This document shows, in pieces, positions 2,453-60,564 of a stretch of 64,000 nt of DNA. Both the position numbers and the translations under genes were made by a program. Each line of letters starts with the position of its first letter. Within the stretch, counting starts at the first letter, position 1. Location of the stretch: assembly GCA_902801125.1 (NCBI GenBank), contig CADCGT010000001.1:16637-80636 (forward strand), written 5' to 3'. The stretch comes from an uncultured Pseudomonadota bacterium (GTDB lineage: Bacteria; Pseudomonadota; Alphaproteobacteria; Rs-D84). The notes beneath the pieces are model-generated. The model did not search any database. It was not told where the DNA came from and worked only from the letters and a program-made list of their open reading frames with translations.

Positions 2453-2558
2453 GTTAGTGGTTAGTGTTAGTGTTAGTGGTTAGTGGCCTCTGGAATTAGT
2501 TCGTAATTAAAAAATTATTCCAGGGTCTACTAACCACTTACACTAATCACTAACCACT
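2453..2558 (+). repeat. Heptamer-armed palindromic element, copy 1 (core 2489-2524)
   Basis: TAGTGGT/TAGTGT arm + TCTGGAATTAGTTCGTAATTAAAAAATTATTCCAGG + CACTAAC arm; contains queH stop. Confidence 0.95.
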
Positions 2559-3091
2559 CTGATACTGAATTCGCAACCGCAATAATTTTGGCGATAAAAA
2601 TCACTTTCACGGTTGATTTGTACGCGTAAATTCTCGTCCCATTTTATGGGCAAATATTCTGTATCGCCGGGCGCAGATTCACCGGCCGCGTCAACCTGAG
2701 CCTGGTCTTTGTGGCGCGACACGCCCAAGACAGATGCCACCGCGTTATACCCGTTTTCACGCGCAAATTTTTTTGCATATTCAAACCGATACGCAAAGCA
2801 AACACTGCACCGCGCACCGCGTTCTGGCTCGGCCTCTAGCCCGCGTACCGCCGCACGCCACGCGTCGTGGTCATATTCGCCGATTTTATATTTCACACCC
2901 AATTTTTCACAATATTTTACTTGTTCTTGCATGCGGCGCATATATTCATCGGCGGGATAAATATTCGGATTAAAAAACAAAACAATAAAATCATCAACAC
3001 CGGGAATTTCCCCGCATGCCAGTTGTTTTATCGCGCCCGCGCTGCACGGCGCACAACAAGATACTAAAACAAGTTTTATTTTATCTAACAT
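2543..3091 (-). CDS. queH: Epoxyqueuosine reductase QueH
   Basis: CCAPC, EPERGARCSVC, FYRQNYCGC motifs. Confidence 0.9.
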   Translation of the reverse strand: MLDKIKLVLVSCCAPCSAGAIKQLACGEIPGVDDFIVLFFNPNIYPADEYMRRMQEQVKYCEKLGVKYKIGEYDHDAWRAAVRGLEAEPERGARCSVCFAYRFEYAKKFARENGYNAVASVLGVSRHKDQAQVDAAGESAPGDTEYLPIKWDENLRVQINRESDFYRQNYCGCEFSIRVVSD

Positions 3092-3525
3092 TATTGTTCT
3101 TTACCGTATATATTGTTAAAAAATTCATAAAGTTTGTTAGGTAATACACCAGCATATTTTGGAAAAACTTGATATCCTTGTCTATTTAGCACCAAAATAT
3201 CTTTATACGGTTTTTGTTCCCTTTTCAAATTTTTCTGTATTTGTGTGATGGTTTCTTTTGCGATTGTCAAATCATTCGGAACAACATAAAATGTTATTTC
3301 CCGTTTTACACTGTGAATAACGGGGTACACATGCGGAACAAACCTGTCATAAAACTCTAATTTATATGATGCAATAACTTGACATGGGTTATTTATTTCC
3401 CGTATGTATCTGTATGGTGCCTCTCCGTTGCCATTCCAACAAAATTCGTTTATATATCTATGACCGGTTATGTCATATGCGGTCAAAGAAAAACCACTAA
3501 ACGAAGTGCCTATTCTATAATTCAT
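3091..3525 (-). CDS. Hypothetical protein, distant paralog of 3972-4562
   Basis: 144-aa ORF; C-terminal QVFPKYAGVLPNKLYEFFN motif; SD supplied by the metG-tail copy. Confidence 0.75.
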   Translation of the reverse strand: MNYRIGTSFSGFSLTAYDITGHRYINEFCWNGNGEAPYRYIREINNPCQVIASYKLEFYDRFVPHVYPVIHSVKREITFYVVPNDLTIAKETITQIQKNLKREQKPYKDILVLNRQGYQVFPKYAGVLPNKLYEFFNNIYGKEQ

Positions 3526-3532
3526 TTTTATT

Positions 3533-3609
3533 TACTCCTTGGTTGTTTCTAATTCAATACGTGTGAACAGATTTTCTGGCACGGTGAATTTTTCGCCTGA
3601 TTCGATTCT
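3533..3609 (-). repeat. Duplicated 3' end of metG (direct repeat of 4568-4644)
   Basis: 73/77 identical by manual alignment. Confidence 0.95.
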
Positions 3610-3622
3610 TTGTCATTTTTAT

Positions 3623-3934
3623 TTATCGACCATTAGATTTACAGGGATAATTTAACCAACCAGACAGACCACGATTATATTCATCCCAAACCACTATCCT
3701 GCGCAACCGGGTCCCGGTTTGTTTTTTGAATCCGTCGTGAAGATTTTTAGTCGTTGTTTCACGCGTTATAATTACTGGACCTAAACATCTTGTATAACAC
3801 AAATAAAGTTCAGATTGTATATAATCCAACATAATATCTTTTTCGATATCTTTAAACACCGCAACACGTTTTTTATTAGGAATATTTGTGTTTGATATAA
3901 TGGTGTATTCGGTATATTTTACATTTTGCGACAT
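3623..3934 (-). CDS. Hypothetical protein
   Basis: 103-aa ORF with AAAGGA SD. Confidence 0.7.
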   Translation of the reverse strand: MSQNVKYTEYTIISNTNIPNKKRVAVFKDIEKDIMLDYIQSELYLCYTRCLGPVIITRETTTKNLHDGFKKQTGTRLRRIVVWDEYNRGLSGWLNYPCKSNGR

Positions 3935-3971
3935 GGTTTATCCTTTGTTTATAAACCTACATCTCTCTCGT

Positions 3972-23664: not shown

Positions 23665-25277
23665 TGGCAAAATACGACAATAATTTTACAGACCAATTAC
23701 GCCAAAGGTTATCTGTGGTTGATGTTGTGTCGCGGCGTGTGCCATTGGTTAAACGCGGTCAAAATTATTGGGGATGTTGTCCGTTTCATAATGAAAAAAC
23801 ACCGTCTTTTTCGGTCAGTGAAGATAAAGGTTTTTATCACTGTTTCGGGTGCGGAAAACATGGCGACATTATTTCTTTTACAATGGAATCTGAACATGTT
23901 GATTTTAAAACCGCAATTGCCGAATTGGCCGATATGGCGGGATTAAAATTGCCGACATATAAACCAAAAACAAAACAACAAATTGAATCCGAAGAATCGT
24001 ATATAACCATAACGGCGGCCGCGGCCAAGATTTACGCCGAAAAATTATTTTCACCCGATGGTGCGCATGCGTTGGAATACGTGCGTCGCCGCGGTTTTAG
24101 TGATGAAATGATAAAAAAATATGGCATCGGGTATGCACCAAAAAATAATATTATTTCAAATAAATTTGCGAATATTAAACAAGAAAAAGTTATTGCGACG
24201 GGACTTGTCCGGCGCGGTGATTACGGGTTGTATGATTTCTTTCGTGATAAATTGATGTTTCCTATTTTTAATGCACACGGTCAAATTGTTGCATTTTCCG
24301 GGCGTTCATTGGATGGGTCCGAACCAAAATATATAAATACAACCGATACAGAAATGTTTCATAAACGGCAAACTCTGTTCGGGTTTAATTTTGCACGCGA
24401 ATCTATTCATCGTGCAAACCGCGCAATTATTGTCGAAGGTCAAATTGACGCAATTCAAATGCAATGTCATGGTTTTGGTGAAACGGTTGCGCCACTTGGC
24501 ACCGCATTGACCGAAGACCACATTGCAATTCTGTGCAAGGCAAACAGAAATATTATTTTCTGTTTTGATGGTGATGGGGCGGGGCAAAAGGCCGCCGCGC
24601 GTGCATGTGGTATTATTTTACCATTCTTGCGTGATAATTCTGATGTGCGTTTTGCGTTTGTGACGGGCGGCAAAGACCCAGATGAAGTATTGAAAAATGG
24701 TGGCCCGGGCGAGATGAAAAAAATTATAGATTCGGCGACGCCATTGGTTGATTTTTTATGGAATATTACAAATAAAAACTATTTAATAAATACACCGGCC
24801 GGTCGGGTCCAGGCGGAAAAATTTATCAAAACAAATACCGATAAAATAACCGATAAAATGTTGCGCGCAGAATATGAACGCGAATATAATAATCGTAAAT
24901 TTAATGAATGGCATAAATGGAAAAAAAATTCGGATACGGTAAATATTGATGTCCCGGAAATAGATAACATTATTAAAAACACACTTGTTTATATTGTAAA
25001 TAAATTTCCATCGGTTGCCGAACGATACGGTGATTTTATATCAAAATTTAATCTTGATTTAGATTCAGATGTCAAAGTTGATTTTGATATGGATTTAAAA
25101 TCTGCGGAAAAATATATAATCACTTTAAAGATACAAAAATATATGGAAAGTTTAGAAAAACAAAAACATGATTTAATGGTGCGCGGACTTTCGGGCGAAA
25201 GTGATGTAAGCCAAGAAATCCGCCGTATAGACGATGAAATAAACCGCATGAGAGAGAAGTTCGATTTGTTAGTGTAA
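23664..25277 (+). CDS. dnaG: DNA primase
   Basis: CPFHNEKTPSF Zn finger, PKYIN, VEGQID, FDGDGAG. Confidence 0.97.
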   Translation: MAKYDNNFTDQLRQRLSVVDVVSRRVPLVKRGQNYWGCCPFHNEKTPSFSVSEDKGFYHCFGCGKHGDIISFTMESEHVDFKTAIAELADMAGLKLPTYKPKTKQQIESEESYITITAAAAKIYAEKLFSPDGAHALEYVRRRGFSDEMIKKYGIGYAPKNNIISNKFANIKQEKVIATGLVRRGDYGLYDFFRDKLMFPIFNAHGQIVAFSGRSLDGSEPKYINTTDTEMFHKRQTLFGFNFARESIHRANRAIIVEGQIDAIQMQCHGFGETVAPLGTALTEDHIAILCKANRNIIFCFDGDGAGQKAAARACGIILPFLRDNSDVRFAFVTGGKDPDEVLKNGGPGEMKKIIDSATPLVDFLWNITNKNYLINTPAGRVQAEKFIKTNTDKITDKMLRAEYEREYNNRKFNEWHKWKKNSDTVNIDVPEIDNIIKNTLVYIVNKFPSVAERYGDFISKFNLDLDSDVKVDFDMDLKSAEKYIITLKIQKYMESLEKQKHDLMVRGLSGESDVSQEIRRIDDEINRMREKFDLLV

Positions 25278-25397
25278 GTGGTTATAGTGTTAGTGGTTAG
25301 TGGATAGTGGTTAGTGATTGGTGGCCTCTGGAATAAATTCAGAATTGCAAAATTATTCCAGATTCTACTAACCACTTACACTAGCCACTAACCACTA
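25268..25397 (+). repeat. Heptamer-armed palindromic element, copy 2 (core 25327-25362)
   Basis: Same architecture; holds stops of both convergent genes. Confidence 0.95.
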
Positions 25398-29956: not shown

Positions 29957-31036
29957 ATGGGTTTCAATTGTGGAATTGTTGGTTTGCCAAATGTAGGAAA
30001 ATCGACACTGTTTAATGCCTTGACGCAAAGTGCCGCGGCGGATGCGCAAAATTATCCGTTTTGTACCATTGAACCGAATACCGGGCGTGTGGTTGTACCG
30101 GATGAAACACTGCATAAATTGGCGGCGGTTGACAATTCGGCCAAGATTATACCGACACAATTGGAAATTGTTGATATTGCGGGACTTGTGCGCGGGGCAT
30201 CGACCGGTGAAGGTTTGGGTAATAAATTTTTGGGTAATATTTTGGAAACCGACGCAATTATTCATGTGGTAAGGTGTTTTGAAAACGATGATATTGTCCA
30301 TGTTGACGGCCGTATAGACCCAATTAGTGATATCGAAACAATCGAAACAGAACTTATGTTGGCGGATTTGGAAAGTTTAGCAAAACAGATTAAAAACCTT
30401 GAAAAAAAAGCACATGGTTTGGACAAAGTTGCTATAAAATTATTGGCCGATGCAAATGTAATCAAAGAAAACCTTGAAAAATCGGTGCCGGCACGGGATT
30501 CGGGTGTTGATACAAAACCGTTTAATTTATTGACCGCAAAACCGGTTATATATGTATGTAATGTGGACGAGGCCGCGGCCGCCAACGGAAACAAATTTTC
30601 ACAAATGGTTGTTGATAAATTTGCTGGTAAAAGTCCGGTTTTAATTATATCCGGAAAAATAGAGATGGAAATTGCGCAAATTATTGACCCGGCGGAACGC
30701 AAAATGTTCTTGGATGATTTAGGGTTGAAACAATCGGGGTTAGAGCAGGTTATCAAGACCGGGTATGAAACATTGGGACTGCAAACATTTTATACTGTTG
30801 GCCCGAAAGAGGCGCACGCCTGGACAATTTTGCGCGGTATGACCGCACCCCAGGCGGCCGGTAAAATTCATACAGATTTTGAACGTGGTTTTATTCGTGC
30901 AGAAGTTATTTCCCCAGATGATTATATAAAATATGGTGGCGAAGTTGCGGTAAAAGAGGCGGGTAAAATGCGCCTTGTTGGACGCGATTATGTTATGCAG
31001 GAAGGCGACATTTGCCATTTCTTGTTTAATAATTAG
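29957..31036 (+). CDS. ychF: Ribosome-binding ATPase YchF
   Basis: GIVGLPNVGKSTLFNALT, NYPFCTIEPN, IHTDFERGFIRAE. Confidence 0.98.
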   Translation: MGFNCGIVGLPNVGKSTLFNALTQSAAADAQNYPFCTIEPNTGRVVVPDETLHKLAAVDNSAKIIPTQLEIVDIAGLVRGASTGEGLGNKFLGNILETDAIIHVVRCFENDDIVHVDGRIDPISDIETIETELMLADLESLAKQIKNLEKKAHGLDKVAIKLLADANVIKENLEKSVPARDSGVDTKPFNLLTAKPVIYVCNVDEAAAANGNKFSQMVVDKFAGKSPVLIISGKIEMEIAQIIDPAERKMFLDDLGLKQSGLEQVIKTGYETLGLQTFYTVGPKEAHAWTILRGMTAPQAAGKIHTDFERGFIRAEVISPDDYIKYGGEVAVKEAGKMRLVGRDYVMQEGDICHFLFNN

Positions 31037-31153
31037 TGGTTAGTGTTAGTGGATAGTGGTTAGTGATTGGTGGCCTCTGGAATAAATTCAGAATTGCAAA
31101 ATTATTCCAGAATCTACTAACCACTAACACTAACCACTAACACTCGTCACTAA
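31033..31153 (+). repeat. Heptamer-armed palindromic element, copy 3 (core 31076-31111)
   Basis: Starts at ychF TAG; nearly identical to copy 2. Confidence 0.95.
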
Positions 31154-42817: not shown

Positions 42818-43888
42818 ATGACACGTTTGGAAATTTTTTATGCCAAAATGGTTTGCAGGTTTAGCAACGACAAACGTATTGCGATTTGGCGTAAATTGGT
42901 GTCTTTGTTGAAAAATGATTTTACATTGGTAAATGCACTAAATCGATTACAGATGATTGAATCGCACGGTGGTGCAAAACCAAATGAACCATTTGCAATT
43001 TGCCTGCGCGAATGGGAAAAAAACCTTGAACGCGGGATGAGTTTTTCCGAAGCCACACGCGGTTGGGTCCCCGCCGAAGAAACATTACTGTTGACAAGTG
43101 GAAATATGTCCAGTTTGATTGTAGCGTTGGAAAATGTTGGACGAATAATCGTCGCAAATAAAAGAATAGGGGGCGCGGTATTCAGTGCAATTGCATATCC
43201 GACATTGTTGTTGGTATTGGTGTTCGCAATTATAATTATGGTTGGACTTTATTTGGTGCCACCGCTTTCCGCCGTTGCCGGTGAAAATATGGTTTGGTCG
43301 GGTGGGGCATCATCATTGATATGGTTGTCAAATTTGGCGGGAAATTATTGGAAACCATTTATGGTTGCACTTGTGATTTTTGGTGTTTTTGTGTGGTGGT
43401 CTTTGCCGCGCCTGGCGGGGCGGGTGCGCGCGGTTATTGATAAATTGCCACCATGGAATATATATAAAATTCGTATGTCGGTTGGTTGGATGATGTCGTT
43501 GTCCGCCATGGTTGCGTCGGGTGTTGCGATACCGGATGCGATGCGTATGTTGGCCGATAATTCAAATCGGTATTTGCGACGGATATTAGAAGAAACATTG
43601 CATTATATCGCGAATGGTGATAATTTGGGTGACGCGTTGCAAAATACAGGTATGGATTTTCCAAACCAAGAATTGATAGGCGATTTAACAATCTATGCCG
43701 ATATGAATGATTTCGATACGAACCTGGGGCAGATTTCAAATGACTATTTGGAAAATTCCGTCAAGAAAATAGAGGCACTTGCCGAAACATTGAATACTGT
43801 TGGAATATTACTTATATCCGCGGTGATTGCGTGGATTGTCCTTGGCACATTCCAGATGCAAGACCAGATAACGGCGTTTTTGAGTTAG
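42818..43888 (+). CDS. Pilus inner-membrane platform protein (PilR/GspF family)
   Basis: AIAYP, three TM regions, LPPWNIYK; follows the ATPase. Confidence 0.85.
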   Translation: MTRLEIFYAKMVCRFSNDKRIAIWRKLVSLLKNDFTLVNALNRLQMIESHGGAKPNEPFAICLREWEKNLERGMSFSEATRGWVPAEETLLLTSGNMSSLIVALENVGRIIVANKRIGGAVFSAIAYPTLLLVLVFAIIIMVGLYLVPPLSAVAGENMVWSGGASSLIWLSNLAGNYWKPFMVALVIFGVFVWWSLPRLAGRVRAVIDKLPPWNIYKIRMSVGWMMSLSAMVASGVAIPDAMRMLADNSNRYLRRILEETLHYIANGDNLGDALQNTGMDFPNQELIGDLTIYADMNDFDTNLGQISNDYLENSVKKIEALAETLNTVGILLISAVIAWIVLGTFQMQDQITAFLS

Positions 43889-43986
43889 TGGTGAGTGTTA
43901 GTGGTTAGTAGATTCTGGAATAATTTTTTAATTACGAAATAATTCCAGACACCACTATCCACTAACCACTTGCACTAACCACTCTA
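43884..43986 (-). repeat. Heptamer-armed palindromic element, copy 4 (core 43914-43949, reverse orientation)
   Basis: Reverse complement matches copies 1 and 7; TAG stops of both convergent genes at its ends. Confidence 0.95.
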
Positions 43987-47316: not shown

Positions 47317-47969
47317 TGTTTGATGCAAAATGGTTTTTTGATTTAGAACGCAAAATAAAAGATTTGGGCGCGGACAGTGACGCCCAATCTTTTGATGAAA
47401 TTCGTGAAATGTTGGCACATCCGCGCAGACTTGCACCAGACGCGTTCGCAGAAATGTGCGCCTATGTAATCTTGGCGGGTGGGTTTTCACAAAAAACCGC
47501 AAAGCGGATTCATAAAAATATTATGGATTACATTTATAAAAATGGTGCGGATTTTGATGCGATTTTTCAAATGTTTCATAATAAAAATAAAGTATCTGCA
47601 ATTTGTAAAATATGGAACGAACGGTGCGCGTTGTGCGATGGGTTCTATAAATGTGAAAACGATGATGACCGGGTTGCGTACCTTGCAACATTGCCACATA
47701 TTGGAAAAATAACCGCGAATCATTTGGCGCGAAATTTGGGTGTAAATATCGTTAAATATGATGTTTGGATTCGGCGTTTGGGCGCGCAATACGCCGGAAT
47801 CCGCCGTATAGACGAAAATGGTAAATTGACGCCGGATGTAAAACGGGCGTGTGATGATATGTTCGCGCATATGGTTGCGGCGACCGGGCTTCCGCGGGGC
47901 TATATTGATGTTGTGTTATGGAAAGCATTACAAATTGGTTTGATAAAAGTGGATAGTGTTAGTGGTTAG
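47316..47969 (+). CDS. Helix-hairpin-helix glycosylase-like protein
   Basis: LATLPHIGKITANHLARNLG...KYDVWIRR; coupled to gyrB by TAATG. Confidence 0.75.
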
Positions 47970-48066
47970 TGCAAGTGGTTAGTGGTATCTGGAATTATTT
48001 TGTAATTATGAAATTATGCCAGATTCTACTAACCACTATCCACTAACACTACCCACTTACCACTAA
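47948..48066 (+). repeat. Heptamer-armed palindromic element, copy 5 (core 47988-48023)
   Basis: Encodes the last residues VDSVSG and stop of the upstream gene. Confidence 0.95.
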
Positions 48067-48084: not shown

Positions 48085-48750
48085 ATGGATGTGAAAATAG
48101 AAGAATCTTGGAAATCTGTTTTGGCGGATGAATTTGATAAAGATTATTTTATTAAATTGACCGATTTTGTGCGCGGCCAATATTTGGCGGGCAAAAAAAT
48201 TTACCCGGCGGCAAAAAATATCTTTAATGCGTTTAACCTGTGTCCGTTTGATTCTGTGCGTGTTGTGATTATCGGTCAAGACCCGTACCATGAACCAGGC
48301 CAGGCGATGGGCCTGTGCTTTTCGGTGCCTGACGGAATCACGCCACCGCCGTCGTTGGTAAATATTTATAAAGAAATTGAAAATGATTTGGGGCGCGCAT
48401 CGCAAACGCATGGTGATTTAACCAATTGGGCACGTCAGGGCGTTTTATTATTAAATTCTACGCTTACGGTTGCGGCGCATTTGGCGGCATCGCACGCGGG
48501 GCGCGGTTGGGAACAATTTACCGACGCGGTAATTCGGGCGTTGGCAACCCGGCGCGATGGTGTGGTTTATATGCTCTGGGGCAGTTATGCCCAGCGCAAG
48601 GCGGAATTTGTGGACGCGTCGCGTAATTTGATTTTGAAAAGCGTACACCCGTCACCACTGTCGGCACACCGCGGTTTTTTTGGTAATCATCATTTTAGTC
48701 GCGCTAATGAATACATAATCGCCCACGGCGGAAAACCAATAGAATGGTAG
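48085..48750 (+). CDS. ung: Uracil-DNA glycosylase
   Basis: GQDPYH, GVLLLN, HPSPLS. Confidence 0.97.
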   Translation: MDVKIEESWKSVLADEFDKDYFIKLTDFVRGQYLAGKKIYPAAKNIFNAFNLCPFDSVRVVIIGQDPYHEPGQAMGLCFSVPDGITPPPSLVNIYKEIENDLGRASQTHGDLTNWARQGVLLLNSTLTVAAHLAASHAGRGWEQFTDAVIRALATRRDGVVYMLWGSYAQRKAEFVDASRNLILKSVHPSPLSAHRGFFGNHHFSRANEYIIAHGGKPIEW

Positions 48751-48870
48751 ATAGTGGGAAGTGTTAGTGGATAGTGTTAGTGGTTAGTGGTTTCTGGAAT
48801 TATTTCACAATTACAAAATTATTCCAGAATCTACTAACCACTATCCACTTACACTAACCACTAACACTAA
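48748..48870 (+). repeat. Heptamer-armed palindromic element, copy 6 (core 48793-48828)
   Basis: Between convergent TAG stops. Confidence 0.95.
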
Positions 48871-52483: not shown

Positions 52484-52484
52484 A

Positions 52485-53055: not shown

Positions 53056-53574
53056 ATGAAAGCGTTGGTTGTTTATTTTTCACATACTGGGGAAAACTGG
53101 GTCGGGGGCGGAATTGCAAACCTGGTTCGGGGTAATACCGCCGTTGTCGCAGAATATGTTCGCGATATTGTCGGGGCGGATTTGTTTGAAATTAAAACAG
53201 AAAAATCCTATCCGACAAAATACGATGAATGTACAAATGTCGCCAAAGATGAAATGAAACAAGATGTGCGCCCGCGGTTAAAGTCTTGGCCAAAAGGCGA
53301 TTTGACCGAATATGATGTCATATTTGTTGGTGGACCGGTTTGGTGGGGAACATACCCAATGGCGGTCTTTACATTTTTGGAACGTTTCGATTTGGCGGGT
53401 CGGACAATTATGCCGTTTACAACACATGAAGGTTCCGGCCTTGGTGAATGCGTGCGTGATGTTAAACGCGCGGCGCGCGGGGCAAATGTTAAACCGGGAT
53501 TGGCAATATATGGTTCAAATGCCGCCGATTCGCGTGACGCGGTTGAAAAATGGATAAAAGAAAACCTGGAATAA
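53056..53574 (+). CDS. Flavodoxin
   Basis: VVYFSHTGEN, GNT, PVWWG, FTTHEGSG. Confidence 0.9.
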   Translation: MKALVVYFSHTGENWVGGGIANLVRGNTAVVAEYVRDIVGADLFEIKTEKSYPTKYDECTNVAKDEMKQDVRPRLKSWPKGDLTEYDVIFVGGPVWWGTYPMAVFTFLERFDLAGRTIMPFTTHEGSGLGECVRDVKRAARGANVKPGLAIYGSNAADSRDAVEKWIKENLE

Positions 53575-53591
53575 AAAAGGGGGAAAATAAT

Positions 53592-54548
53592 ATGGACAAG
53601 AAAAAAATAATTGCCGCCGCCGCAATCGGCGCGGTTGTCGGGGCGGGTGGTGCGATTGTTCACAATGTGGTTGCGGAAAGTGAACCGATTGTTTATTTTA
53701 CGCGTGATATTTCGCCGGCGGGGTTGCAACGCGCATATAAAGCCTTGGATTGGACGCCAAAAGGCAAGGTTGGTGTTAAAATGAGTACCGGCGAATCATC
53801 AAAAAGTAATTATCTGCGCCCGGAACTTATCAAAGATTTAATTGGCGAAATTGATGGAACAATCGTCGAATGTAATACCGCATACGGCGGAAATCGGTCG
53901 GACAGTGAATCGCACTGGGCCGCAATACGCGAACGCGGTTTTTTAGATGTCGCGCCGGTTGATATTATGGACGAAGAAGGTTCGATGACATTGCCGGTTG
54001 ATGGCGGAAATGTTTTGAATGAAAACTATGTGGGGACACATTTTGCAAATTATCCGTCGTATGTGGTGCTGTCCCATTTCAAGGGGCATGCGATGGCGGG
54101 ATTCGGTGGCGCAATTAAAAATATATCAATCGGATTTGCAAGTTCCATGGGTAAAAAATGGATTCACAGTGGTGGAAAATCCAAAGAATCTATGTGGGGT
54201 GGCGAACAAAACGCGTTCTTGGAATCTATGGCGGACGCCGCCAAGGCCGTGACAAATTATGTCGGCCGGGACAATATGGTTTATATAAATGTATTGAATC
54301 GCATAAGTATCGATTGTGATTGCGATGGTGACCCCGCCGAACCAGATATTCATGATATTGGTATCTTGGTTTCGCGTGACCCGGTTGCCATTGACCAGGC
54401 CGGTATAGATATGGTATCCAAGGCCGATGGTAATGAAAGCCTTATGCAAAGAATCGCCGAAAAAAACGGCCTGCACACGTTAGAGGCCGCAGAAAAAATC
54501 GGCGTTGGTTCGCGTAAATATAAATTGGTTGATTTAGACAAGGAGTAA
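53592..54548 (+). CDS. DUF362 domain protein
   Basis: VKMSTGE, ECNTAYGG, SHFKGH..GFGGAIKN, CDC, DPVAID. Confidence 0.85.
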   Translation: MDKKKIIAAAAIGAVVGAGGAIVHNVVAESEPIVYFTRDISPAGLQRAYKALDWTPKGKVGVKMSTGESSKSNYLRPELIKDLIGEIDGTIVECNTAYGGNRSDSESHWAAIRERGFLDVAPVDIMDEEGSMTLPVDGGNVLNENYVGTHFANYPSYVVLSHFKGHAMAGFGGAIKNISIGFASSMGKKWIHSGGKSKESMWGGEQNAFLESMADAAKAVTNYVGRDNMVYINVLNRISIDCDCDGDPAEPDIHDIGILVSRDPVAIDQAGIDMVSKADGNESLMQRIAEKNGLHTLEAAEKIGVGSRKYKLVDLDKE

Positions 54549-54552
54549 AATT

Positions 54553-55572
54553 ATGAAGTGGTTGGTTTTGATAATATGTGCGTGTGTTTTGGTGGGGGTG
54601 GTGATTTGGCGTCAATCCAATTCATGGGATAAAGTTTTCCCGCGTGATGAAAATGTCACCGTCCAGAAAGTGCATTTCAAAAATCGCTATGGCATAGATT
54701 TAACCGGCGATTTATATATGCCAAAAAATAAACCGGATGCAAAATTGCCGGCAATCGCGGTGGCGGGGCCGTTCGGCGCGGTCAAAGAACAATCAAGTGG
54801 CCTGTATGCCACCGAGATGGCGCGTCGCGGTTTTATCGCGTTGGCGTTTGACCCGTCCTTTACCGGGGAAAGCGGGGGCGCCGTGCGATATGTGGCGTCG
54901 CCCGATATAAACACCGAAGATTTTTCCGCCGCGGTGGATTATTTGGCAAATCGGGTGGATGTTGATGCCGACAAAATCGGAATTATCGGAATCTGTGGTT
55001 GGGGTGGTATGGCAATAAATGCCGCCGCAATGGATACACGCATTCGGGCGACCGTTGCGTCAACTATGTATGATATGACGCGTGTGACCGCAAATGGATA
55101 CTTTGACGCCGATGATAATGCCGATGCACGGTTTGCCACAAAATCGGCACTGAATGCGCAAAGAACACAAGATTATAAAAACGGTCGGTATGAATTGGCG
55201 GGCGGGGTGGTTGACCCATTGCCAGACGATGCACCAAACTTTGTCAAAGATTACTATGCGTATTATAAAACCCCGCGCGGATATCATAAACGTTCGTTGA
55301 ATTCTAATGGCGGATGGAATAAAACCAGTGCTTTGTCGTTTATGAATATGCCGTTGTTGCAATATGCCGATGAAATTCGCAGCGCGGTATTGCTTGTTCA
55401 CGGTGAAAACGCGCACAGCCGGTATTTTAGTGAAGACGCGTTCAAAAAATTAAAAGGCGATAATAAAGAATTACTGATTGTGCCGAATGCGTCGCATGTT
55501 GACCTGTATGACAATATGGAAAAAATACCGTTTGATAAAATAGAATCTTTTATGCGGGAAAATATGAAATAA
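54553..55572 (+). CDS. Alpha/beta hydrolase
   Basis: GPFGAVKEQ, FDPSFTGESGG, GICGWGG, HVDLYD. Confidence 0.9.
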   Translation: MKWLVLIICACVLVGVVIWRQSNSWDKVFPRDENVTVQKVHFKNRYGIDLTGDLYMPKNKPDAKLPAIAVAGPFGAVKEQSSGLYATEMARRGFIALAFDPSFTGESGGAVRYVASPDINTEDFSAAVDYLANRVDVDADKIGIIGICGWGGMAINAAAMDTRIRATVASTMYDMTRVTANGYFDADDNADARFATKSALNAQRTQDYKNGRYELAGGVVDPLPDDAPNFVKDYYAYYKTPRGYHKRSLNSNGGWNKTSALSFMNMPLLQYADEIRSAVLLVHGENAHSRYFSEDAFKKLKGDNKELLIVPNASHVDLYDNMEKIPFDKIESFMRENMK

Positions 55573-56258
55573 TGTATGATGAAAATGAAATTAGAAATTC
55601 TCTGTATGCGGCGGCGGACGCCGTATACAGGGATTTTAATTCGTCTTTGATTACAACGGTTGATAAAAATTGTGTCATTGGTGTGCGGACACCGCGGTTG
55701 CGCGCAATGGCGAAAAATATGATAAAATCAGAAACAGACAAAGATTTTATTCAAAATTTGCCACATAAATTTTTTGAAGAAAATCAATTGCACGCCTTTG
55801 TTATATCGGAATACCGCGATTTTGATGCGGCGGTGCGGGCGGTTGATAATTTTTTGCCGTATATTGATAACTGGGCAACATGTGACCAAACATCGCCAAA
55901 GGTGTTTGTGAAAAACGCCGAAAAATTATTGCCGTATATCAAAAGATGGATTAAATCAAAACATGCCTATACGGTGCGTTTTGCGGTATTATGCCTTATG
56001 CGATATTTTTTAGACAATGATTTTGATACAAAATATGCCGATATGGTTTTAAATATAAATTCAGATGAATACTATGTAAATATGATGCGGGCATGGTATT
56101 TTGCAACCGCATGCGCAAAGCAATTCGATAAAATTGAACCATATTTTTCAAAACTGGACGGTTGGACGCGTGCGCGTGCGATTCAAAAATCGATTGAATC
56201 ACGGCGCGTGTCGGCGGAACACAAAGAAAAATTAAAAAATTTAAAAAAACTATTCTAG
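55572..56258 (+). CDS. DNA alkylation repair protein (AlkD-like)
   Basis: GVRTP.LR, IDNWATCD, YYVNMMRAW. Confidence 0.85.
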   Translation: MYDENEIRNSLYAAADAVYRDFNSSLITTVDKNCVIGVRTPRLRAMAKNMIKSETDKDFIQNLPHKFFEENQLHAFVISEYRDFDAAVRAVDNFLPYIDNWATCDQTSPKVFVKNAEKLLPYIKRWIKSKHAYTVRFAVLCLMRYFLDNDFDTKYADMVLNINSDEYYVNMMRAWYFATACAKQFDKIEPYFSKLDGWTRARAIQKSIESRRVSAEHKEKLKNLKKLF

Positions 56259-56612
56259 AAATATAATGCCAATCCAAAGTGCGCATACGCAAATTATGGT
56301 TATCATAACAATTGCACTGCCTATATCTTTGGCCTTTTTTGACAAGGGGTGTATTTCCGGACCGATTCTGTCTATTATGGTTTCGATTGCGGTGTTAATC
56401 ATTTCCGCAATAATTATGAACACCAAAGAAAACAACATTATTATGCGCGACAACCCCGATACATCAAGAAAACACAATAACACAGTGGCCAAAACACATA
56501 AAAATATATCTTGGCGAAATGCAGATTCTGATTTATATGTGGCAATTATGCCATCGATTGAATGCATAAATGCATGAAATATTCTGCGCAGCCCCGTTTC
56601 GTTCGATTTCAT
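56250..56612 (-). CDS. dgkA: Diacylglycerol kinase
   Basis: ESAFR, EMINTAIE..ID, KKAKDIGSA. Confidence 0.93.
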   Translation of the reverse strand: MKSNETGLRRIFHAFMHSIDGIIATYKSESAFRQDIFLCVLATVLLCFLDVSGLSRIIMLFSLVFIIIAEMINTAIETIIDRIGPEIHPLSKKAKDIGSAIVMITIICVCALWIGIIFLE

Positions 56613-58009
56613 TTTTTATCCTTTCCCGTGGCAAGTTGATAATACAGGTCGTTTTTTTGTTCCATCATGGATTGTAATTCTTGGTCGGAAAATCGTTCGC
56701 GTAAAGTTTTTGTTCCTTGGCAAGCGGTATCCAATGACACCCCAAGGGCCATTTTGCATCCATCAATCTTGGCACCGGCGGCCGACAACATCGTTGGGAA
56801 AAAATCCATTGCGGATACGGGTCGATGTAAATCTGCGCCTTGGAAAATAGGGGTGTTTATAAATACATTGGCCAATGGTCTGTTTGATATGGTATTTAAT
56901 TTTTTCATCAACGGCCCAGAATGTTGTTTGTGGTCATTCAACAGGATTATAACCGCGGTCGGGTCCGCCGCGCGAAACCATTTTACAAAATCATAGATAA
57001 TTTTATCATCGCATTTTGTGATGTCTTGCGTGGTTTCTTGTTTGAAACCCATATTACGACAGTAATCTGTAAAGAACCCTTCCAAATGGGTGTTGATTGT
57101 TTCCATGAATATAAAATACGGTTGTTTGGATTTAATTATATCTGATAATACGGGTTTGGACCATTCAAATAAAACCCCATCATCGACACCATGAAATGGT
57201 TTTTGTTTTGGTGGGTTTTTTAATTGGGCGTATATTTTTTCGCCGTCAATTACATGGTCAAAACCCATGTGATACATAAAGGATTCTTTTTTGGAAAAAT
57301 TGCCACTTGCCGGGAAAATAGACCATGTTTGATACCCGGCGCGATTTAATATTTTGCCAATGCCGTATGCACCTGTCATTTTATCGGTGTTGCGATAACT
57401 GGTATAGAATAATGGTAATCCGGACACGAACCCGGTAATTGCCGCAATGGTGTGCGACAGGCCGGGTATAGAGTGATAATTTTCAAATGATATATTTTTT
57501 TGCTCCAATTCGGTTATGTATGGGGTCAAGACTTCGCCAAATTTTTCTTGGTCGCCATATACTTTTTCGATGCTTTCAAGTGCGATGATTAAAACATTTC
57601 TTTTTTGTGGCCATTGTATATTCACACTTTGGGGGTCGACATATTCCGTTTCATAAAAGTTTGATTTGGTAAAGTTAAAAAAACTGCCAAATTGGACATT
57701 GCGTATGGCAATCTGGATAATCATAAACGCCGTATAGCACCCAAATACAAGTAATAAAACATTGCGTCTGTATTTGAACCAATGACAAATAAACGCGCCC
57801 AATCCCGCATAAAACAGGGAACGCAAAAGAACCTTGCGAACAAAGGCCCATAAAATTTGGGAATCTGTACCACCAATGCCAGAATTTAATACTATAGCGA
57901 TTTCATCAAAATTTATTCGTCCAAATTGGCCGTATATCCATTTAACCAACCATGCAAAAAATACGATTATAAATAAAGAGATAAAAATTTTGATGAATTT
58001 TTTGTTCAT
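56609..58009 (-). CDS. Phosphoglycerol transferase/LTA-synthase family sulfatase
   Basis: N-terminal TM helices, ALESIE, HTIAA, ETINTH, LNDH, MDFFPT. Confidence 0.85.
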   Translation of the reverse strand: MNKKFIKIFISLFIIVFFAWLVKWIYGQFGRINFDEIAIVLNSGIGGTDSQILWAFVRKVLLRSLFYAGLGAFICHWFKYRRNVLLLVFGCYTAFMIIQIAIRNVQFGSFFNFTKSNFYETEYVDPQSVNIQWPQKRNVLIIALESIEKVYGDQEKFGEVLTPYITELEQKNISFENYHSIPGLSHTIAAITGFVSGLPLFYTSYRNTDKMTGAYGIGKILNRAGYQTWSIFPASGNFSKKESFMYHMGFDHVIDGEKIYAQLKNPPKQKPFHGVDDGVLFEWSKPVLSDIIKSKQPYFIFMETINTHLEGFFTDYCRNMGFKQETTQDITKCDDKIIYDFVKWFRAADPTAVIILLNDHKQHSGPLMKKLNTISNRPLANVFINTPIFQGADLHRPVSAMDFFPTMLSAAGAKIDGCKMALGVSLDTACQGTKTLRERFSDQELQSMMEQKNDLYYQLATGKDKK

Positions 58010-58173
58010 GGTGATTCCTTGGTAAATACAATAGGATTTTAATCGTAATATACTATATATTCAATAAATTTATGTCAATTATCGTTAAAAGTAAGTCCTA
58101 AAACAGGTCAGGGCGGTTTTTTACTTGATTTTTTTCCATATGTTCGTATAATTCGCCCGTGATTTTACGAATT

Positions 58174-58247
58174 GCCCTAATAGTCTAGTGGTAAAACACG
58201 TCCTTGGTAAGGACGAGTCGCAAGTCCGATTCTTGCTTAGGGCACCA
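58174..58247 (+). tRNA. tRNA-Thr(GGT)
   Basis: GCCCTAA...CGTCC-TTGGTAA-GGACG...TTAGGGCACCA. Confidence 0.95.
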
Positions 58248-58472
58248 GAAATATCCCATCTGATTTGCGTTTGTTGATTTTTGTTCGGGTCGTGTATGTC
58301 TAATACACTCCCGTCACAAGAATTGCACAATACGCATCATCTGGAACATTTCTGGCGCCCTGCGGGCACCACCCTTCGCGTCTTTGAGGCTTCATAAATG
58401 GTGTATATCGTGATACAGTTTTGTTTTCTAAATTGAAATCAGAATATGGGGCGAAATAAAAAATTATAGTGC

Positions 58473-58501
58473 TTGAAAATAATAAAATCTTGGTCTAGAA
58501 T
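58473..58501 (+). promoter_or_regulatory. Sigma70-type promoter for the aspS leader
   Basis: TTGAAA-17 bp-TAGAAT. Confidence 0.7.
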
Positions 58502-58509
58502 ACCGGAAA

Positions 58510-58684
58510 GTTTTGGCGGTTATGATGATGTGCCCAACAACCACGGAGTAATCGGCAAAACATTAAAAAAGTGATAAATTCGGGTGGCACCGCGCATAGC
58601 CAATATGCGCCCCGAAAGAGCATTAAAATAACATGGGTGCCAAAATTTCCTGGTTTTGTCGCCCAAAAAGTAAAAGGCGAAAAA
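58510..58684 (+). promoter_or_regulatory. T-box riboswitch, ultrashort stem I, translational type
   Basis: Antiterminator TTCGGG-TGGCACC-GCGCATA/TATGCGC-CCCGAA; K-turn stem I; alternative SD-sequestering helices. Confidence 0.85.
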
Positions 58685-60454
58685 ATGTTATCACTGAAAT
58701 CAAAATACAGAACACATACATGTGGTGAACTGTCGGCCAAAAATGTTGGTGAAACCGTGACACTTTCGGGCTGGGTCCATCGTAAACGCGACCATGGGTC
58801 GTTGCTGTTTATCGACCTGCGCGATAATTATGGAATTACACAGATTGTTATTGATGGCGGAAACGAGGATTTAGAACGCGTGCGCCCGGAATCTGTATTA
58901 CAGGTTGTCGGCAAGGTTGTCGCGCGTGACGCGTCCCAGGTAAATGATAAAATCCCAACCGGGGAAATTGAAATCCAGGTTGAATCTTGGAATGTTTTGA
59001 CATCAGCCGAGGTTTTGCCTTTCCAGGTTTTCGGCGATGAAGATACCAGTGAAGAATTACGGTACAAATATCGGTTCTTGGATTTGCGCCGTGAAAAATT
59101 GCATCACAATATTTTGATGCGCAACAAAATGATAAAATGGTTGCGCGATAAAATGTGGGATTTGGGATTTTCGGAATTTCAGACGCCGTTGCTTACCGCC
59201 GATTCACCCGAAGGTGCGCGCAGTTTCTTGGTTCCATCGCGTTTGCATCATGGTAAATTCTATGCGTTGCCCCAGGCCCCCCAGATGTTCAAACAATTAT
59301 TACAGGTGTCGGGTTTCGACCGGTATTTCCAAATTGCACCGTGTTTTCGTGATGAAGATTTGCGTGCAGACCGTTTGTTAGAATTCTATCAATTAGATTT
59401 AGAAATGTCTTTTGTTGATTTGCCGGATATTCAGGCCGTAGGCGAGGCGGTAATGCCGGAATTTGTGCGGACTTTTTTGCCGACGGCAAATGTATATCCG
59501 GAAATTCCACATATTTCTTTTGATGACGCGATGTTAAAATATGGGTCCGATAAGCCAGATTTGCGTAACCCGATTTTGATTTCTGATGTGACGGAAATTT
59601 TCCGTGGTTCGGATTTTGGAATCTTTGCGAACGCAATTGAAAATGGCGCCGTTGTGCGTGCAATTCCGGCCCCGAACAGCGCGGACAAACCACGTTCGTG
59701 GTTTGATAAACTTGGCGAATATGCCGTGAAAGAATTGGGGCTTGGGGGACTTGCCTATATCGTGTTTGGCGAAGAAGCCAAAGGTCCGGTTGCCAAGAAA
59801 TTGGACGAGGCAAGAATTGCGAAACTGCGCAATGTGGCCGGTGATAATTCTTCGTTGTTCTTTGTGTGCGACGCACAAGAATCGGCGGCCAAGGCGGCGG
59901 GCAGGCTGCGCAACAAATTGGGGGCAGATTTGGGTTTAATCAATGAAAACGATTTTGCGTTTTGTTGGGTTGATAATTTCCCGTTCTTTGAACCCGATGA
60001 AGAACGCGGTGGCGCACCGGCCTTTACACATAACCCATTTTCATACCCGATGGCAACATTGGAAGAATTGTCCACGCGTGACCCGTTCACGATTAAGGCG
60101 GCACAATTTGATATGGTGTTGAATGGTATGGAAATTTGCAGTGGGGGATTGCGCAACTATAACCCGGATGTTATGAAAAAATGTTTCGAAATCGCCGGTT
60201 ATCCAATAGAGGCGGTCGAAAAGAACTTTTCGGGCCTGTATACATCGTTCCAATATGGTGCGCCACCACACGGCGGGTGCGCGTTTGGTATCGAAAGACT
60301 TATTTCAGAAATTTTGGGTAATGGTGACAGTTTGCGTGAAATTGTCGCGTTCCCGGCGAACCAACGCGGACAAGATTTGCTTATGGGGTCACCAAACGAA
60401 GTTACCGAACAGCAACTGCGCGATGTGCATATTCAGGTAAGAAAGAAGAATTAG
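58685..60454 (+). CDS. aspS: Aspartyl-tRNA synthetase, probably non-discriminating
   Basis: YRTHTCG, RDHG, YALPQAPQ, FRDEDLRADR, GAPPHGG.AFG; true start MLSLK. Confidence 0.97.
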   Translation: MLSLKSKYRTHTCGELSAKNVGETVTLSGWVHRKRDHGSLLFIDLRDNYGITQIVIDGGNEDLERVRPESVLQVVGKVVARDASQVNDKIPTGEIEIQVESWNVLTSAEVLPFQVFGDEDTSEELRYKYRFLDLRREKLHHNILMRNKMIKWLRDKMWDLGFSEFQTPLLTADSPEGARSFLVPSRLHHGKFYALPQAPQMFKQLLQVSGFDRYFQIAPCFRDEDLRADRLLEFYQLDLEMSFVDLPDIQAVGEAVMPEFVRTFLPTANVYPEIPHISFDDAMLKYGSDKPDLRNPILISDVTEIFRGSDFGIFANAIENGAVVRAIPAPNSADKPRSWFDKLGEYAVKELGLGGLAYIVFGEEAKGPVAKKLDEARIAKLRNVAGDNSSLFFVCDAQESAAKAAGRLRNKLGADLGLINENDFAFCWVDNFPFFEPDEERGGAPAFTHNPFSYPMATLEELSTRDPFTIKAAQFDMVLNGMEICSGGLRNYNPDVMKKCFEIAGYPIEAVEKNFSGLYTSFQYGAPPHGGCAFGIERLISEILGNGDSLREIVAFPANQRGQDLLMGSPNEVTEQQLRDVHIQVRKKN

Positions 60455-60564
60455 GGTAGAGTGGTTAGTGTAAGTGGTTAGTGGCTAGTGGTGTCTGGAA
60501 TTATTTCGTAATTATGAAATTATGCCAGATTCTACTAACCACTAACACTCGCCACTAACACTAA
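60452..60564 (+). repeat. Heptamer-armed palindromic element, copy 7 (core 60494-60529)
   Basis: Between convergent TAG stops of aspS and the asmA-like gene. Confidence 0.95.

Follow-up and report, generated by a model that had tools for sequence, protein, structure and literature searches.

Lineage-specific palindromic mosaic repeats, probably non-autonomous, at gene ends in a small-genome gut alphaproteobacterium

Examination of a 64,000-nt stretch of DNA (hereinafter the window) reveals seven copies of a repeat unit that, at one site and within one species, is either present or precisely absent, and that behaves as a discrete unit of gain and loss. Complete units, including both arms, are also duplicated at unrelated loci. 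The window belongs to G000, a 970 kb genome (94.9% complete) of a Candidatus Enterousia-like alphaproteobacterium from the ruminant gut. The units probably make up a family of palindromic mosaic repeats that is non-autonomous, specific to this lineage, and REP/BIME-, BOX/SPRITE- or MITE-like in kind. Such repeats are gained and lost between strains of a gut bacterium with a tiny genome, even though no transposase gene was found in it.

Each unit spans ~100-130 nt (about 110) and presents inverted TAGTGGT/TAGTGT arrays on both sides of a core. The arm arrays are built of TTAG-TGG and TTAG-TG units, inverted about an AT-rich pseudo-palindrome of 34/36 nt with consistently unlike halves. All seven copies claimed by the original prediction were located, as follows:

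E1, 2454..2559, plus strand: left array, core CTGG..CCAG at 2490-2523, right array
E2, 25268..25397, plus strand: core at 25328-25361, flanked by the convergent dnaG (23664-25277) and an ORF at 25395-26138 (minus strand)
E3, 31033..31153, plus strand: core at 31077-31110, first base at the TAG stop of ychF (29957-31036)
E4, 43885..43984, minus strand: the sole reversed copy of the window, core at 43915-43948
E5, 47947..48066, plus strand: core at 47989-48022, between an ORF at 47316-47969 and a uracil-DNA-glycosylase (UDG)-family gene (48106-48750)
E6, 48748..48869, plus strand: core at 48794-48827, between the convergent UDG-family gene and an ORF at 48867-49961 (minus strand)
E7, 60452..60564, plus strand: core at 60495-60528, between the convergent aspS (58571-60454) and an ORF at 60561-63038 (minus strand)

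In the window, the pattern CTGGAAT-N20-ATKCCAG has 7 sites (12 strand matches), whereas 100 dinucleotide-preserving shuffles predict 0.00, and TAGTGGTTAGTG, with at most one mismatch, gives 34 matches against 0.04 expected, 32 of them inside the seven elements. Strand scores agree with the predicted polarity of six forward copies and one reversed (43885-43984). A queH-like gene (2543-3091, minus strand) terminates within the right arm of E1, with a fabD-like gene (1526-2410, minus strand) downstream of the element, and the opening array unit of E2 is the conserved C-terminal TTAGTGTAA of dnaG. E4 is flanked by a convergent T2SS-F/PilC-like gene (42761-43888) and ORF (43984-44556, minus strand).

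Scanning the whole of G000 with nhmmer, as the original prediction had suggested, recovered 21 core loci in total, 7 of which fall in the window, which makes up 6.6% of the genome (binomial P = 2.8e-4). In addition, the genome contains roughly 40 solo arrays, most of them preceded by a stop codon and followed by an intrinsic terminator; 46 of its 71 arrays of at least 3 units do not adjoin a strict core. Arrays measure just about 20-40 nt, their complementary strand is nearly free of G, and further small hairpin modules are nested within them. A GC-rich module of this kind is preceded by [TAC]TAGT in 19/20 copies and followed by TG[TC][TA]A in 19/20. Among 66 matches, taken from one genome per species, 53 bear arms, and all 53 come from Enterousia, Alphaproteobacteria or proteobacterium gut MAGs; within the genus, element-like cores were seen in 13 of 200 other genomes. 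Rfam, run over the whole window at the gathering score, returned 5 tRNAs and no match to the elements; two elements of one relative gave miRNA-hairpin matches only, all of them sub-threshold. This agrees with the original prediction, which recognized no named class in this dispersed family. A CRISPR array was rejected, as the units follow one another directly with no spacers in between, and one arm is inverted relative to the other.

The original prediction had suggested looking for empty and filled versions of orthologous sites, and these were found. In contigs of runs X4, X6 and X12, from three studies, positions 47953-48062/48063 of E5 are precisely absent: position 47952 is joined to 48063/48064, the flanks are about 98-99% identical, and the shorter flank at each junction measures 150-255 nt. 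The empty allele reads AAAAGTGG-[C/G]-TAATTGAACGG. No target-site duplication is apparent at the aligner's junction of this empty/filled pair; a TA duplication requires reading one adjacent base as a substitution, and every array unit starts with TA. At the same site in 19 relatives, 11 are empty, 5 are filled, 2 retain remnants and 1 (G163) holds a different small inverted-repeat element. The original prediction had named identical occupancy in relatives as evidence against itself; occupancy is non-uniform at each of the six orthologous sites examined, so that the prediction is not refuted on this count. Neighborhoods vary as well: G055 lacks the gene following E3 (31196-32671), and what lies downstream of E3 differs in each of the 5 relatives examined.

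The direction of change at E5 can be read in more than one way. G184 bears an identical core (34/34 nt) at this site, which makes precise deletion in the other strains as likely as insertion. Across E5, G000 is 0.95-1.00 identical to G184, whereas the adjoining 3' part of the upstream gene is merely 0.53-0.78 identical to it; this upstream gene is instead 0.93-0.98 identical to those of G055 and G210, both of which are without the element. Such a mosaic points to import of the allele by homologous recombination and not to transposition.

The original prediction further held that the arms looked rebuilt rather than copied, and comparison of whole elements does not support this in the form proposed. 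E4 and the reverse complement of E7 are 93% identical over 100 nt without a gap, the sister copies E2 and E3 are 90% identical over 121 nt, arms included, and a copy at a non-orthologous site of G175 matches E7 at 95% over 109 nt, with flanking genes at about 70-87%. Gene conversion among older resident elements could be an alternative origin of the sister copies. The arms are altered afterwards by slippage within the species, in whole units of 7 or 14 nt: one strain is 14 nt shorter in the right arm of E4 (at 43951), one is 14 nt longer in the left arm of E7 (at 60459), and E6 is present in the other strains compared, where the X6 and X12 contig pieces crossing it total 7 gap letters. The likeness of the arms to telomeres proved superficial, and no reverse transcriptase was found in G000.

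The core was originally claimed to be invariant in length. This is borne out by 14 of 14 strict copies of the genome, in which CTGG through CCAG spans 34 nt (36 if the flanking T and A/G are counted). It does not extend beyond them: a 27-nt core lies near 14498 of contig C6 of G000, G057 has one of 33 nt, and in G055 the core has shrunk to 14 nt (CTGGAATATTCCAG). The half-sites are unlike each other, while the outer 7-mers and an AATT center are conserved, and the core-proximal arm unit is TAGTGG-NN on one side and TAGTAGA on the other. Across 59 distinct cores, complementary bases stand at mirror positions 8 and 10 in just 17% and 15%, and compensatory covariation is absent from the inner core (3.80 own pairs versus 4.08 +/- 0.11 with shuffled partners). 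Nor do the two arms of an element complement each other (0.50) better than they complement the arms of other elements (0.575 +/- 0.023). Given the conserved asymmetry and the lack of inner-core covariation, a protein site fits better than a selected stem. The core is therefore a plausible candidate, judged from its sequence, for a site recognized by a protein; its partner protein was not found.

A six-frame search of the whole of G000 for six families extended to the genome the earlier claim that the window lacks a transposase. Y1/RAYT (PF01797) gave 0 matches at E <= 0.01, with the control positive in 6/14 known genomes, and rve, DDE_Tnp_1, TnpB, IS110 and RVT_1 gave no matches. Together with the discrete gain and loss at E5, this accords with the non-autonomous mobile or structural element originally proposed. 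A MITE with its parent insertion sequence in G000 is not supported, none of these six transposase/RT families having been found there. Plasmid and phage sequences gave no blastn match to the element. Integron attC sites, which are recognized by conserved RYYYAAC/GTTRRRY ends, were also rejected: these motifs were not found in the seven window elements, the copies are dispersed behind housekeeping genes with no integron integrase context or cassette array, and the relevant integrase content is limited to two Xer-like recombinases and one weak integrase-like ORF.

Counts of arrays and intergenic regions, which rest on crude longest-ORF gene calls, place the family at gene ends. Of 71 arrays, 24 open with the TAG stop of the upstream ORF, 11 lie within 10 nt past a stop and 3 are entered by the ORF, and cores are enriched between convergent genes, where 8 of 160 intergenic regions have one, compared with 6 of 700 elsewhere (odds ratio 6.1, P = 0.0013). 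Terminators consisting of a GC hairpin and a T-run are tightly tied to the solo arrays (28/43 array-only intergenic regions versus 194/803 array-free ones; odds ratio 5.9, P = 4e-8), and only 3 of 14 core-bearing intergenic regions have a further terminator-like hairpin, the other 11 being without one. Behind aspS, an array together with a GC terminator is present in G184 and G175, and another module with the same terminator in G208 and G090; G000 has E7 alone, in place of the GC-rich intrinsic terminator found in these four relatives. All seven elements fold as RNA into one long hairpin each (-43.3 to -58.5 kcal/mol, z -7.2 to -11.6, with E1 at -58.5 kcal/mol and z -11.6); as DNA, the 4 elements folded give z -5.8 to -11.2. 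Furthermore, the elements contain stop codons in every frame on both strands.

These features would suit a host 3'-end module, in which TAG stops in all three frames of either strand are combined with a long hairpin that terminates or pauses transcription both ways or protects mRNA, species differences being ordinary terminator turnover and copies spreading by gene conversion. We regard this account as possible, if rather unlikely. The absence of compensatory covariation, and arms that pair no better with each other than with those of other elements, argue against it, as does the viability of strains without E5. In addition, 3 of the 7 window copies have tandem genes on either side, in one case with the next start codon 40 nt downstream, 19 of 71 arrays follow no co-oriented ORF, and some are located between a promoter-like site and a start codon. 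An intrinsic (Rho-independent) terminator in the strict sense was rejected: the core is rich in AT, the stem exceeds 40 pairs in most copies, and the right arm is not followed by a T-run.

The core could alternatively be an att/dif/res-like site of a tyrosine or serine recombinase, with the elements bordering small gene cassettes that integrate and excise, an explanation that we find doubtful. Its unlike half-sites, conserved outer 7-mers and AATT center are compatible with such a site, and G000 has two Xer-like tyrosine, two small serine and one large serine recombinase. At the E4 and E7 sites, G055 has two direct copies around ~400-500 nt with a small ORF, against one copy and no segment in G000; in G184 and G175, additional genes amounting to 600-1500 nt lie at the element or within it (E2, E4 and E7 sites), and in G175 a half-core adjoins foreign DNA. 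However, RecA could equally delete between two direct copies, the aspS site of G208 holds a similar inserted segment without array or core, and there is neither an integron integrase context nor a cassette array. Moreover, just 1 of 13 core-bearing relatives encodes a full-length homologue of a 567-aa integrase-like protein, and the small serine recombinase family is far wider (147/200 genomes of the genus) than the cores (13), so the recombinases present do not track the element. The original suggestion of a dimeric protein or recombinase site is plausible, and asymmetry without covariation suits a protein site better than a selected stem. It is very improbable that an RNA- or DNA-binding factor uses the arrays as its platform (a multimeric UAG/UGG reader, or a C-rich antisense Rho loading site acting against antisense transcription), with the palindromic form a by-product at convergent genes: 52/71 arrays share the orientation of the upstream gene, the complementary strand is almost devoid of G and a Rho gene is present, but the arrays are short at about 20-40 nt, paired arms of full elements would conceal any single-stranded site, and whole-unit copying and indels would be left unexplained.

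Returning to the mosaic repeat family, the arrays, or TTAG/TAG-like sequences, might provide landing and homology tracts, with a protein binding at the core. Spread could proceed via host recombination and replication, namely gene conversion, template switching and allele import by homologous recombination, or else via an enzyme that is unrecognizable or encoded outside the assembly. The cell might tolerate or exploit the element as an all-frame translational stop and a 3'-end hairpin or terminator. A bolder reading, which we offer tentatively and hold to be improbable as it stands, is a self-spreading gene-end cassette without its own transposase, in which TTAG-TGG arrays are portable landing or homology tracts by which interchangeable hairpin modules are exchanged and seeded at stop codons. 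The modules swapped would comprise the asymmetric AT core, two GC-rich hairpins and even intrinsic terminators, and the agent could be host recombination/replication or an unrecognized single-strand nuclease cutting 3' of TTAG with no target duplication. If this were true, mobile parts would be the means by which a reduced genome replenishes its terminators and all-frame stops. For the mosaic repeat family as a whole, a function selected by the host alone would equally account for cores being enriched where genes converge and for other terminators being scarce there.

Among known systems, REP/BIME and REPIN-RAYT elements of Enterobacteria and Pseudomonas, REPINs being treated in PMC3116915, are likewise extragenic palindromes at gene 3' ends and between convergent genes, and likewise mosaics of a few hairpin-forming modules duplicated within a genome. 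The elements here are also extragenic imperfect palindromes at gene 3' ends, but their palindrome is far longer and built of arrays. Unlike REPIN-RAYT, they have no Y1/RAYT gene in G000, and in contrast to the single 20-40-nt GC-rich stem of REP their arms are arrays of 6/7-nt units, the unit is about 110 nt and the 34/36-nt core is AT-rich and asymmetric. BOX elements have a variable count of internal subunits. Pneumococcal BOX, RUP and SPRITE are described as small intergenic repeats without their own enzyme that bunch and insert into each other, SPRITE resembling Rho-independent terminators (PMC10969869). The present family differs from them in sequence and phylum, in having its variable 6/7-mers inverted on both sides, and in arrays that also occur solo between stop codon and terminator. 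Correia elements have fixed terminal inverted repeats and a TA duplication. Correia/CREE of Neisseria are described as palindromic intergenic repeats of about 100-200 nt with strain-variable presence, a transcript hairpin cut by RNase III and an internal IHF site (PMC10969869). They carry promoters and lie mostly upstream of genes, whereas the present family lies at 3' ends with array arms and no duplication apparent at the aligner's junction of E5. For Nostoc, Elhai et al. are said to have described in 2008 tiny hairpin modules that interrupt tandem heptamers always in the same register, and the GC-rich module, with its fixed flanks (19/20 on each side), follows this pattern; the phylum and unit sequence differ, and inverted arms around a fixed core are not known from the Nostoc repeats. 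Rickettsia palindromic elements (RPEs) persist in reduced alphaproteobacterial genomes and are known to insert in-frame into coding sequences, unlike the present elements, which have all-frame stops on both strands and are confined to gene ends. Compared with MITEs, each arm is an array drawn from a single unit family, set in inverted orientation and ragged at its outer end, and the arms within an element resemble each other no more than arms of different elements do. Our best reading is that this is a previously undescribed repeat family, without an Rfam match and set apart from REP, BOX, Correia and RPE by their descriptions.

Examination of the window recovers all seven elements of the original prediction, each composed of inverted TAGTGGT/TAGTGT arrays (the arms) around a core of fixed length:

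Elements in the window (approximate positions)
E1: 2454, forward
E2: 25268, forward
E3: 31033, forward
E4: 43885, reversed
E5: 47947, forward
E6: 48748, forward
E7: 60452, forward

The strict core pattern, CTGGAAT-N20-ATKCCAG, occurs at 7 window sites against 0.00 expected from 100 shuffles, and the unit pair TAGTGGTTAGTG (at most one mismatch) gives 34 matches against 0.04 expected, 32 of the 34 falling inside E1-E7. The predicted constancy of core length holds for the strict cores of the whole genome (G000; 969,765 bases in 7 contigs, C1-C7, 94.9% complete), with 34 nt from CTGG to CCAG in 14 of 14. An nhmmer profile built from these 14 cores retrieves 21 core loci in G000, the remaining 7 being degenerate or shortened; the window is 6.6% of the genome yet holds 7 of the 21 (binomial P = 2.8e-4). 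Neighbors of the window copies are housekeeping genes: queH, a fabD-like gene, dnaG, ychF, a T2SS-F/PilC-like gene, a UDG-family gene and aspS. The cluster of seven lies around a change in the sign of the GC skew at about 16400-17250, where gene orientation also flips from pheT-pheS-rplT on the minus strand to mreC-mrdA-rodA-topA-dnaG on the plus strand; the site could be a replication origin, or simply a place where the genes change strand.

The near relatives of this genome are Candidatus Enterousia or Alphaproteobacteria MAGs from rumen, omasum and faeces. A 2025 paper (PMC12306168) describes Enterousia (order Rs-D84) as inhabitants of the gut whose genomes are smaller than about 1 Mb. A 20-mer from the arrays (at most one mismatch) is found 46 times in G000; of 24 other genus genomes, 6 contain it (1-10 times each), and of 16 genomes from five further families of the order, none does. 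Matches to the core pattern are present in 28 of 200 other genus genomes; 15 of the 28 hold unrelated strings, and 13 genomes (G055, G057, G062, G085, G090, G143, G155, G158, G163, G175, G183, G184 and G208) carry element-like cores of 33-34 nt with a central AATT-type motif, 1-9 per genome. As these 13 are mostly among the genomes closest to G000 in DNA, the family marks a subclade. Across prokaryotes, with one genome per species and a core pattern of 19 specified bases, 66 loci were recovered. Arms are present at 53, all of them in gut MAGs labelled Enterousia, Alphaproteobacteria or proteobacterium, and the 13 armless loci comprise 12 singletons in unrelated taxa and one in a related MAG. 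Arms and core of the relatives' elements are the same as in G000, and this is a real, clade-limited family.

Comparison of the copies shows that whole units have been duplicated, arms included. E4 matches the reverse complement of E7 at 93% over 100 nt without gaps and E2 matches E3 at 90% over 121 nt, in both cases through the arms; E5 and E7 are 81% identical, with gaps of unit size. Over 109 nt, E7 of G000 also shares 95% identity with the element that G175 carries at the E4 site. Arms within an element are no closer to mirror images (0.50) than arms taken from different elements (0.575 +/- 0.023; 22 elements passing the arm filter). Where E4 and E7 differ, the changes are concentrated in a single core half, which E7 has in common with E5, suggesting patchy conversion between copies.

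Variation is also seen within the species. The stretch is contained in 20 public runs from 12 studies of bovine, sheep or other gut samples, and contigs from three DNA runs of three studies (X4, X6 and X12), with flanks about 98-99% identical to the window, were compared. In X4 position 47952 is joined directly to 48063, and in X6 and X12 it is joined to 48064 with one G between (shorter side of these joints, 150-255 nt); E5 is therefore precisely absent there, and the species contains both states, by gain or by loss. E4, E6 and E7 are present in these strains, and arms of E4 and E7 show unit slippage: X4 has 14 nt fewer in the E4 right arm and 14 nt extra in the E7 left arm. The X6 and X12 contig pieces across E6 contain 7 gap letters in total, at unspecified places. 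The empty E5 allele, AAAAGTGG-[C/G]-TAATTG, resembles one and a half array units; read on the opposite strand in X4, its break falls right after TTAG. Three further short-sided joints (43910-48760, 47985-48778 and 48037-60540) link arms of different elements and were set aside as repeat-induced. Elsewhere in the window, 376 nt (52630-53005) between tandem 180-aa paralogues (52485-53027 and 53032-53574) are missing in all three runs, with a shared stretch of 10 nt where the ends join, and beside a tRNA (58174-58244) an X6 contig has about 900 nt replacing about 150 nt (58239-58391).

Comparison of six sites (E2-E7) with relatives, at about 70-95% identity in the flanking genes, reveals both empty and filled states, with occupancy varying at all six:

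Occupancy of orthologous sites
E2 site: full, smaller element in G055; a GC-rich hairpin module (GC module) between two mini-arms in G208; empty in G210; additional genes, 600-950 nt, at the element or within it in G184 and G175
E3 site: array starting exactly at the conserved stop in G000, G184 and G208 (all TAG); empty in G055, G210 (TAA stop) and G175 (TAG stop)
E4 site: one copy and no ORF in G000; two direct copies around a small ORF in G055, the second core collapsed to 14 nt; ORF without array in G208 (TAA stop)
E5 site: 11 of 19 relatives empty (spacer of 15-18 nt), among them the two most similar at this site, G055 and G210; 5 of 19 filled (G184, G175, G057, G183 and G090); remnants in G158 and G155; a different small inverted-repeat element in G163
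E6 site: plain terminator in G055; empty in G208; filled in G090; remnants in G184 and G175
E7 site: element alone in G000; solo array (an array without core) and GC terminator in G184 and G175; another module with that same terminator in G208 and G090; two direct copies around about 500 nt in G055

Elements and terminators interchange at orthologous sites. At the E5 site G184 has an identical 34-nt core, and its identity to G000, 0.95-1.00 across the element, drops to 0.53-0.78 where the upstream gene ends beside it; the G000 copy of this gene is 0.93-0.98 identical to those of G055 and G210, both empty. The E5 locus is a recombinational mosaic with a breakpoint at the element edge. Two further small elements were encountered in the relatives. 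A mini-element of about 100 nt with inverted repeats (TTAAAAATTATTTCTATGGAT...AAATAATTTTTAA; L096, L097, L099, L100 and L105) occupies the E5-orthologous site (window 47940-48070) in G057, G183, G090, G163 and G155, whether or not the TAGTGGT element is there too, and a module of about 45 nt (CCACACCCCGGCC...GGGGAACTT plus complement; L012, L016, L097, L099, L130, L132, L150 and L152) lies between arm and core or before a terminator.

The unit originally proposed, arms plus core, describes the seven full elements; it does not cover the whole family, as arrays also stand alone and host other modules. G000 has 71 arrays of at least 3 units, 46 of them without an adjoining strict core (a few of the 46 flank degenerate cores). 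Positions were scored on our crude ORF calls (867 ORFs, 90% coding): 24 of the 71 begin with the TAG stop of the upstream ORF, 11 lie within 10 nt after a stop, 12 at 11-80 nt and 2 farther away, 3 are run into by an ORF, and 19 do not follow a co-oriented ORF, some of these last lying between a promoter-like site and a start codon. Arrays mostly occupy gene ends and often supply the stop codon, a typical solo array starting at or just past the stop and ending at a GC-rich hairpin with a T-run; the first unit of E2 is itself the conserved C-terminus of dnaG. The GC module (TCCGTC...GACGGG, 30-37 nt, two main variants) has 20 copies in G000, with examples outside the window at C1 ~146959 and ~147023, C2 ~230754 and ~300864, and C3 ~5491, among others. 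It sits in a fixed register inside TAGTGGT arrays with a duplication of at most 1 nt. [TAC]TAGT stands on the 5' side of 19 of the 20 copies and TG[TC][TA]A on the 3' side of 19, such that its removal restores the array to within one T. Often directly 3' of an array with a CCGCGG hairpin is a conserved segment of about 160 nt (AAAAAACCAAGGTTTAAA...CCTTGGTTT), present at 23-28 places in G000 (e.g. C1:158399, C1:183068, C2:6261 and C7:25308, outside the window); it is located ahead of a large family of paralogous proteins with signal peptides (MIKKSFLLGAIAS...TSKSYVD...KQDKI) and has the look of a promoter and 5'UTR held in common by a family of variable surface proteins.

These positions bear on the possibility, which we consider improbable, that the family is primarily a terminator module of the host. 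Terminator-like hairpins are found in 28 of 43 array-only intergenic regions versus 194 of 803 array-free ones (odds ratio 5.9, P = 4e-8), and in just 3 of 14 core-bearing regions. Cores occur in 8 of 160 convergent intergenic regions versus 6 of 700 others (odds ratio 6.1, P = 0.0013). The elements do have hairpin potential: each of E1-E7 is predicted to fold as RNA into one long hairpin (-43.3 to -58.5 kcal/mol, z -7.2 to -11.6; none of 200 shuffles did as well), and the four folded as DNA give z of -5.8 to -11.2. Contigs of the RNA run X17 cover genes and break at the repeats, and are uninformative on 3' ends or read-through.

Less probable still is that the core serves as a recombination site for cassettes, a reading on which the extra genes at the E2, E4 and E7 sites, the paired direct copies at the E4 and E7 sites and the enzymes of the genome bear. 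G000 encodes Rho, two Xer-like tyrosine recombinases and the following further recombinase candidates:

Recombinase candidates in G000
C4:26302-28005: weak 567-aa integrase-like ORF
C4:32010-32594: small serine recombinase
C6:7075-7875: small serine recombinase
C3:134-1696: large serine recombinase

The 567-aa ORF was rejected as the element enzyme; it scores 24.2-26.4 bits against PF00589, below the cut-off, and is matched in 31 of 200 genus genomes, at full length in only G175 of the 13 core-bearing relatives. The small serine recombinase, found in 147 of 200 genus genomes, was likewise rejected as a specific partner; neither tracks where the element occurs. An integrated element may be present on C4, the contig with the lowest G+C (0.413). 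Scanning G000 for its own dif site with a loose motif was uninformative, yielding hundreds of matches by chance. The lack of a transposase, first noted for the window, holds genome-wide for six families: six-frame searches of G000 found no Y1/RAYT, rve, DDE_Tnp_1, TnpB, RVT_1 or IS110 domain, each search being positive in 3-9 of 14 known genomes used as controls. Nor did the element match any Rfam family, or any plasmid or phage by blastn. Viral contigs gave 3 core matches (two Enterousia-like fragments with arms and one chance match) and 0 for an array 19-mer, with no autonomous version seen among them. In the searchable literature the unit strings appear just as primers and unrelated sequences, and the accessible portion of the Enterousia genome paper does not contain the word 'repeat'. 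Among the genes beside elements in relatives is a family of 50-60-aa ORFs (...GYRMTQKE[FY][IV]GLI.AI.QQAM.D[IF]*) ending right at the array in G055, G175 and G208 (L128:924-1644; L133/L123; L142; L137), in G055 between two direct element copies at two sites, and with no homologue in G000. A leader-like structured motif (GGTTGGAGG ... CCTCCAACC-N4-6-GGTTGGA) precedes genes for small secreted proteins or lipoproteins, at C3:24350-24443, C5:86143-86233 and C6:27114-27207 and in the inserted segments of L128, L111 and L112; one copy (L128) was searched against Rfam and had no match.

A set of 59 distinct cores from G000 and relatives showed that mirror positions 1-7 (CTGGAAT/ATTCCAG) and 16-17 (AA/TT) are nearly always complementary. 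Positions 8-15 form 3.80 pairs within an element versus 4.08 +/- 0.11 between the left half of one element and the right half of another, so the inner core is not being preserved as a stem; pairing at positions 8 and 10 occurs in just 17% and 15% of cores, indicating that the two halves are kept different. The polarity described originally corresponds to the CTGGAAT-AA half adjoining the TAGTAGA linker, as in E1, E4, E5 and E7, the window copies with unlike halves; in E2 and E3 both halves begin with A. Such asymmetry is the pattern expected of a site read by a protein, which the core may be. We regard it as very improbable that the arrays are a factor-binding platform. A 58-aa ORF beside elements in G055, G175 and G208 was dismissed as a core-binding partner, since it has no homologue in G000 (best tblastn E = 0.49).

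In light of these observations, we favor as the probable reading a lineage-specific family of mosaic repeats. We propose that the arrays, or TTAG-like sequence, could guide the landing of modules, that propagation would proceed via host recombination or replication or an unseen enzyme, and that the host might benefit from, or at least tolerate, the stops and hairpin. One would expect a genome smaller than 1 Mb to have lost its repeats and mobile DNA. This one, at 970 kb and with no transposase that can be recognised, still has 21 palindromic elements together with several tens of solo arrays and nested hairpin modules of at least two types, and at least one unit differs between strains 98-99% identical. 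It thus offers 1) a tractable system in which to ask how orphan palindromic repeats of the REP, BOX and Correia-like sort spread when they encode no enzyme of their own; 2) strain-level markers, in unit number and presence or absence, for an uncultured and widespread ruminant gut lineage; and 3) a possible instance in which mobile DNA has come to occupy the place of the stop codon and terminator in core genes.

The nested GC module is closest to the small dispersed repeats reported from heptamer arrays of cyanobacteria. For the element itself, the closest known kinds are REP/BIME-REPIN, the pneumococcal BOX, RUP and SPRITE, and Correia. REPINs have a RAYT, whereas G000 has no RAYT gene; classical MITEs have a parent IS and a duplication, whereas here no parent IS was found and no duplication shown. 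These differences set the element apart as a new form within a general kind, and the family is a member of a familiar general class.
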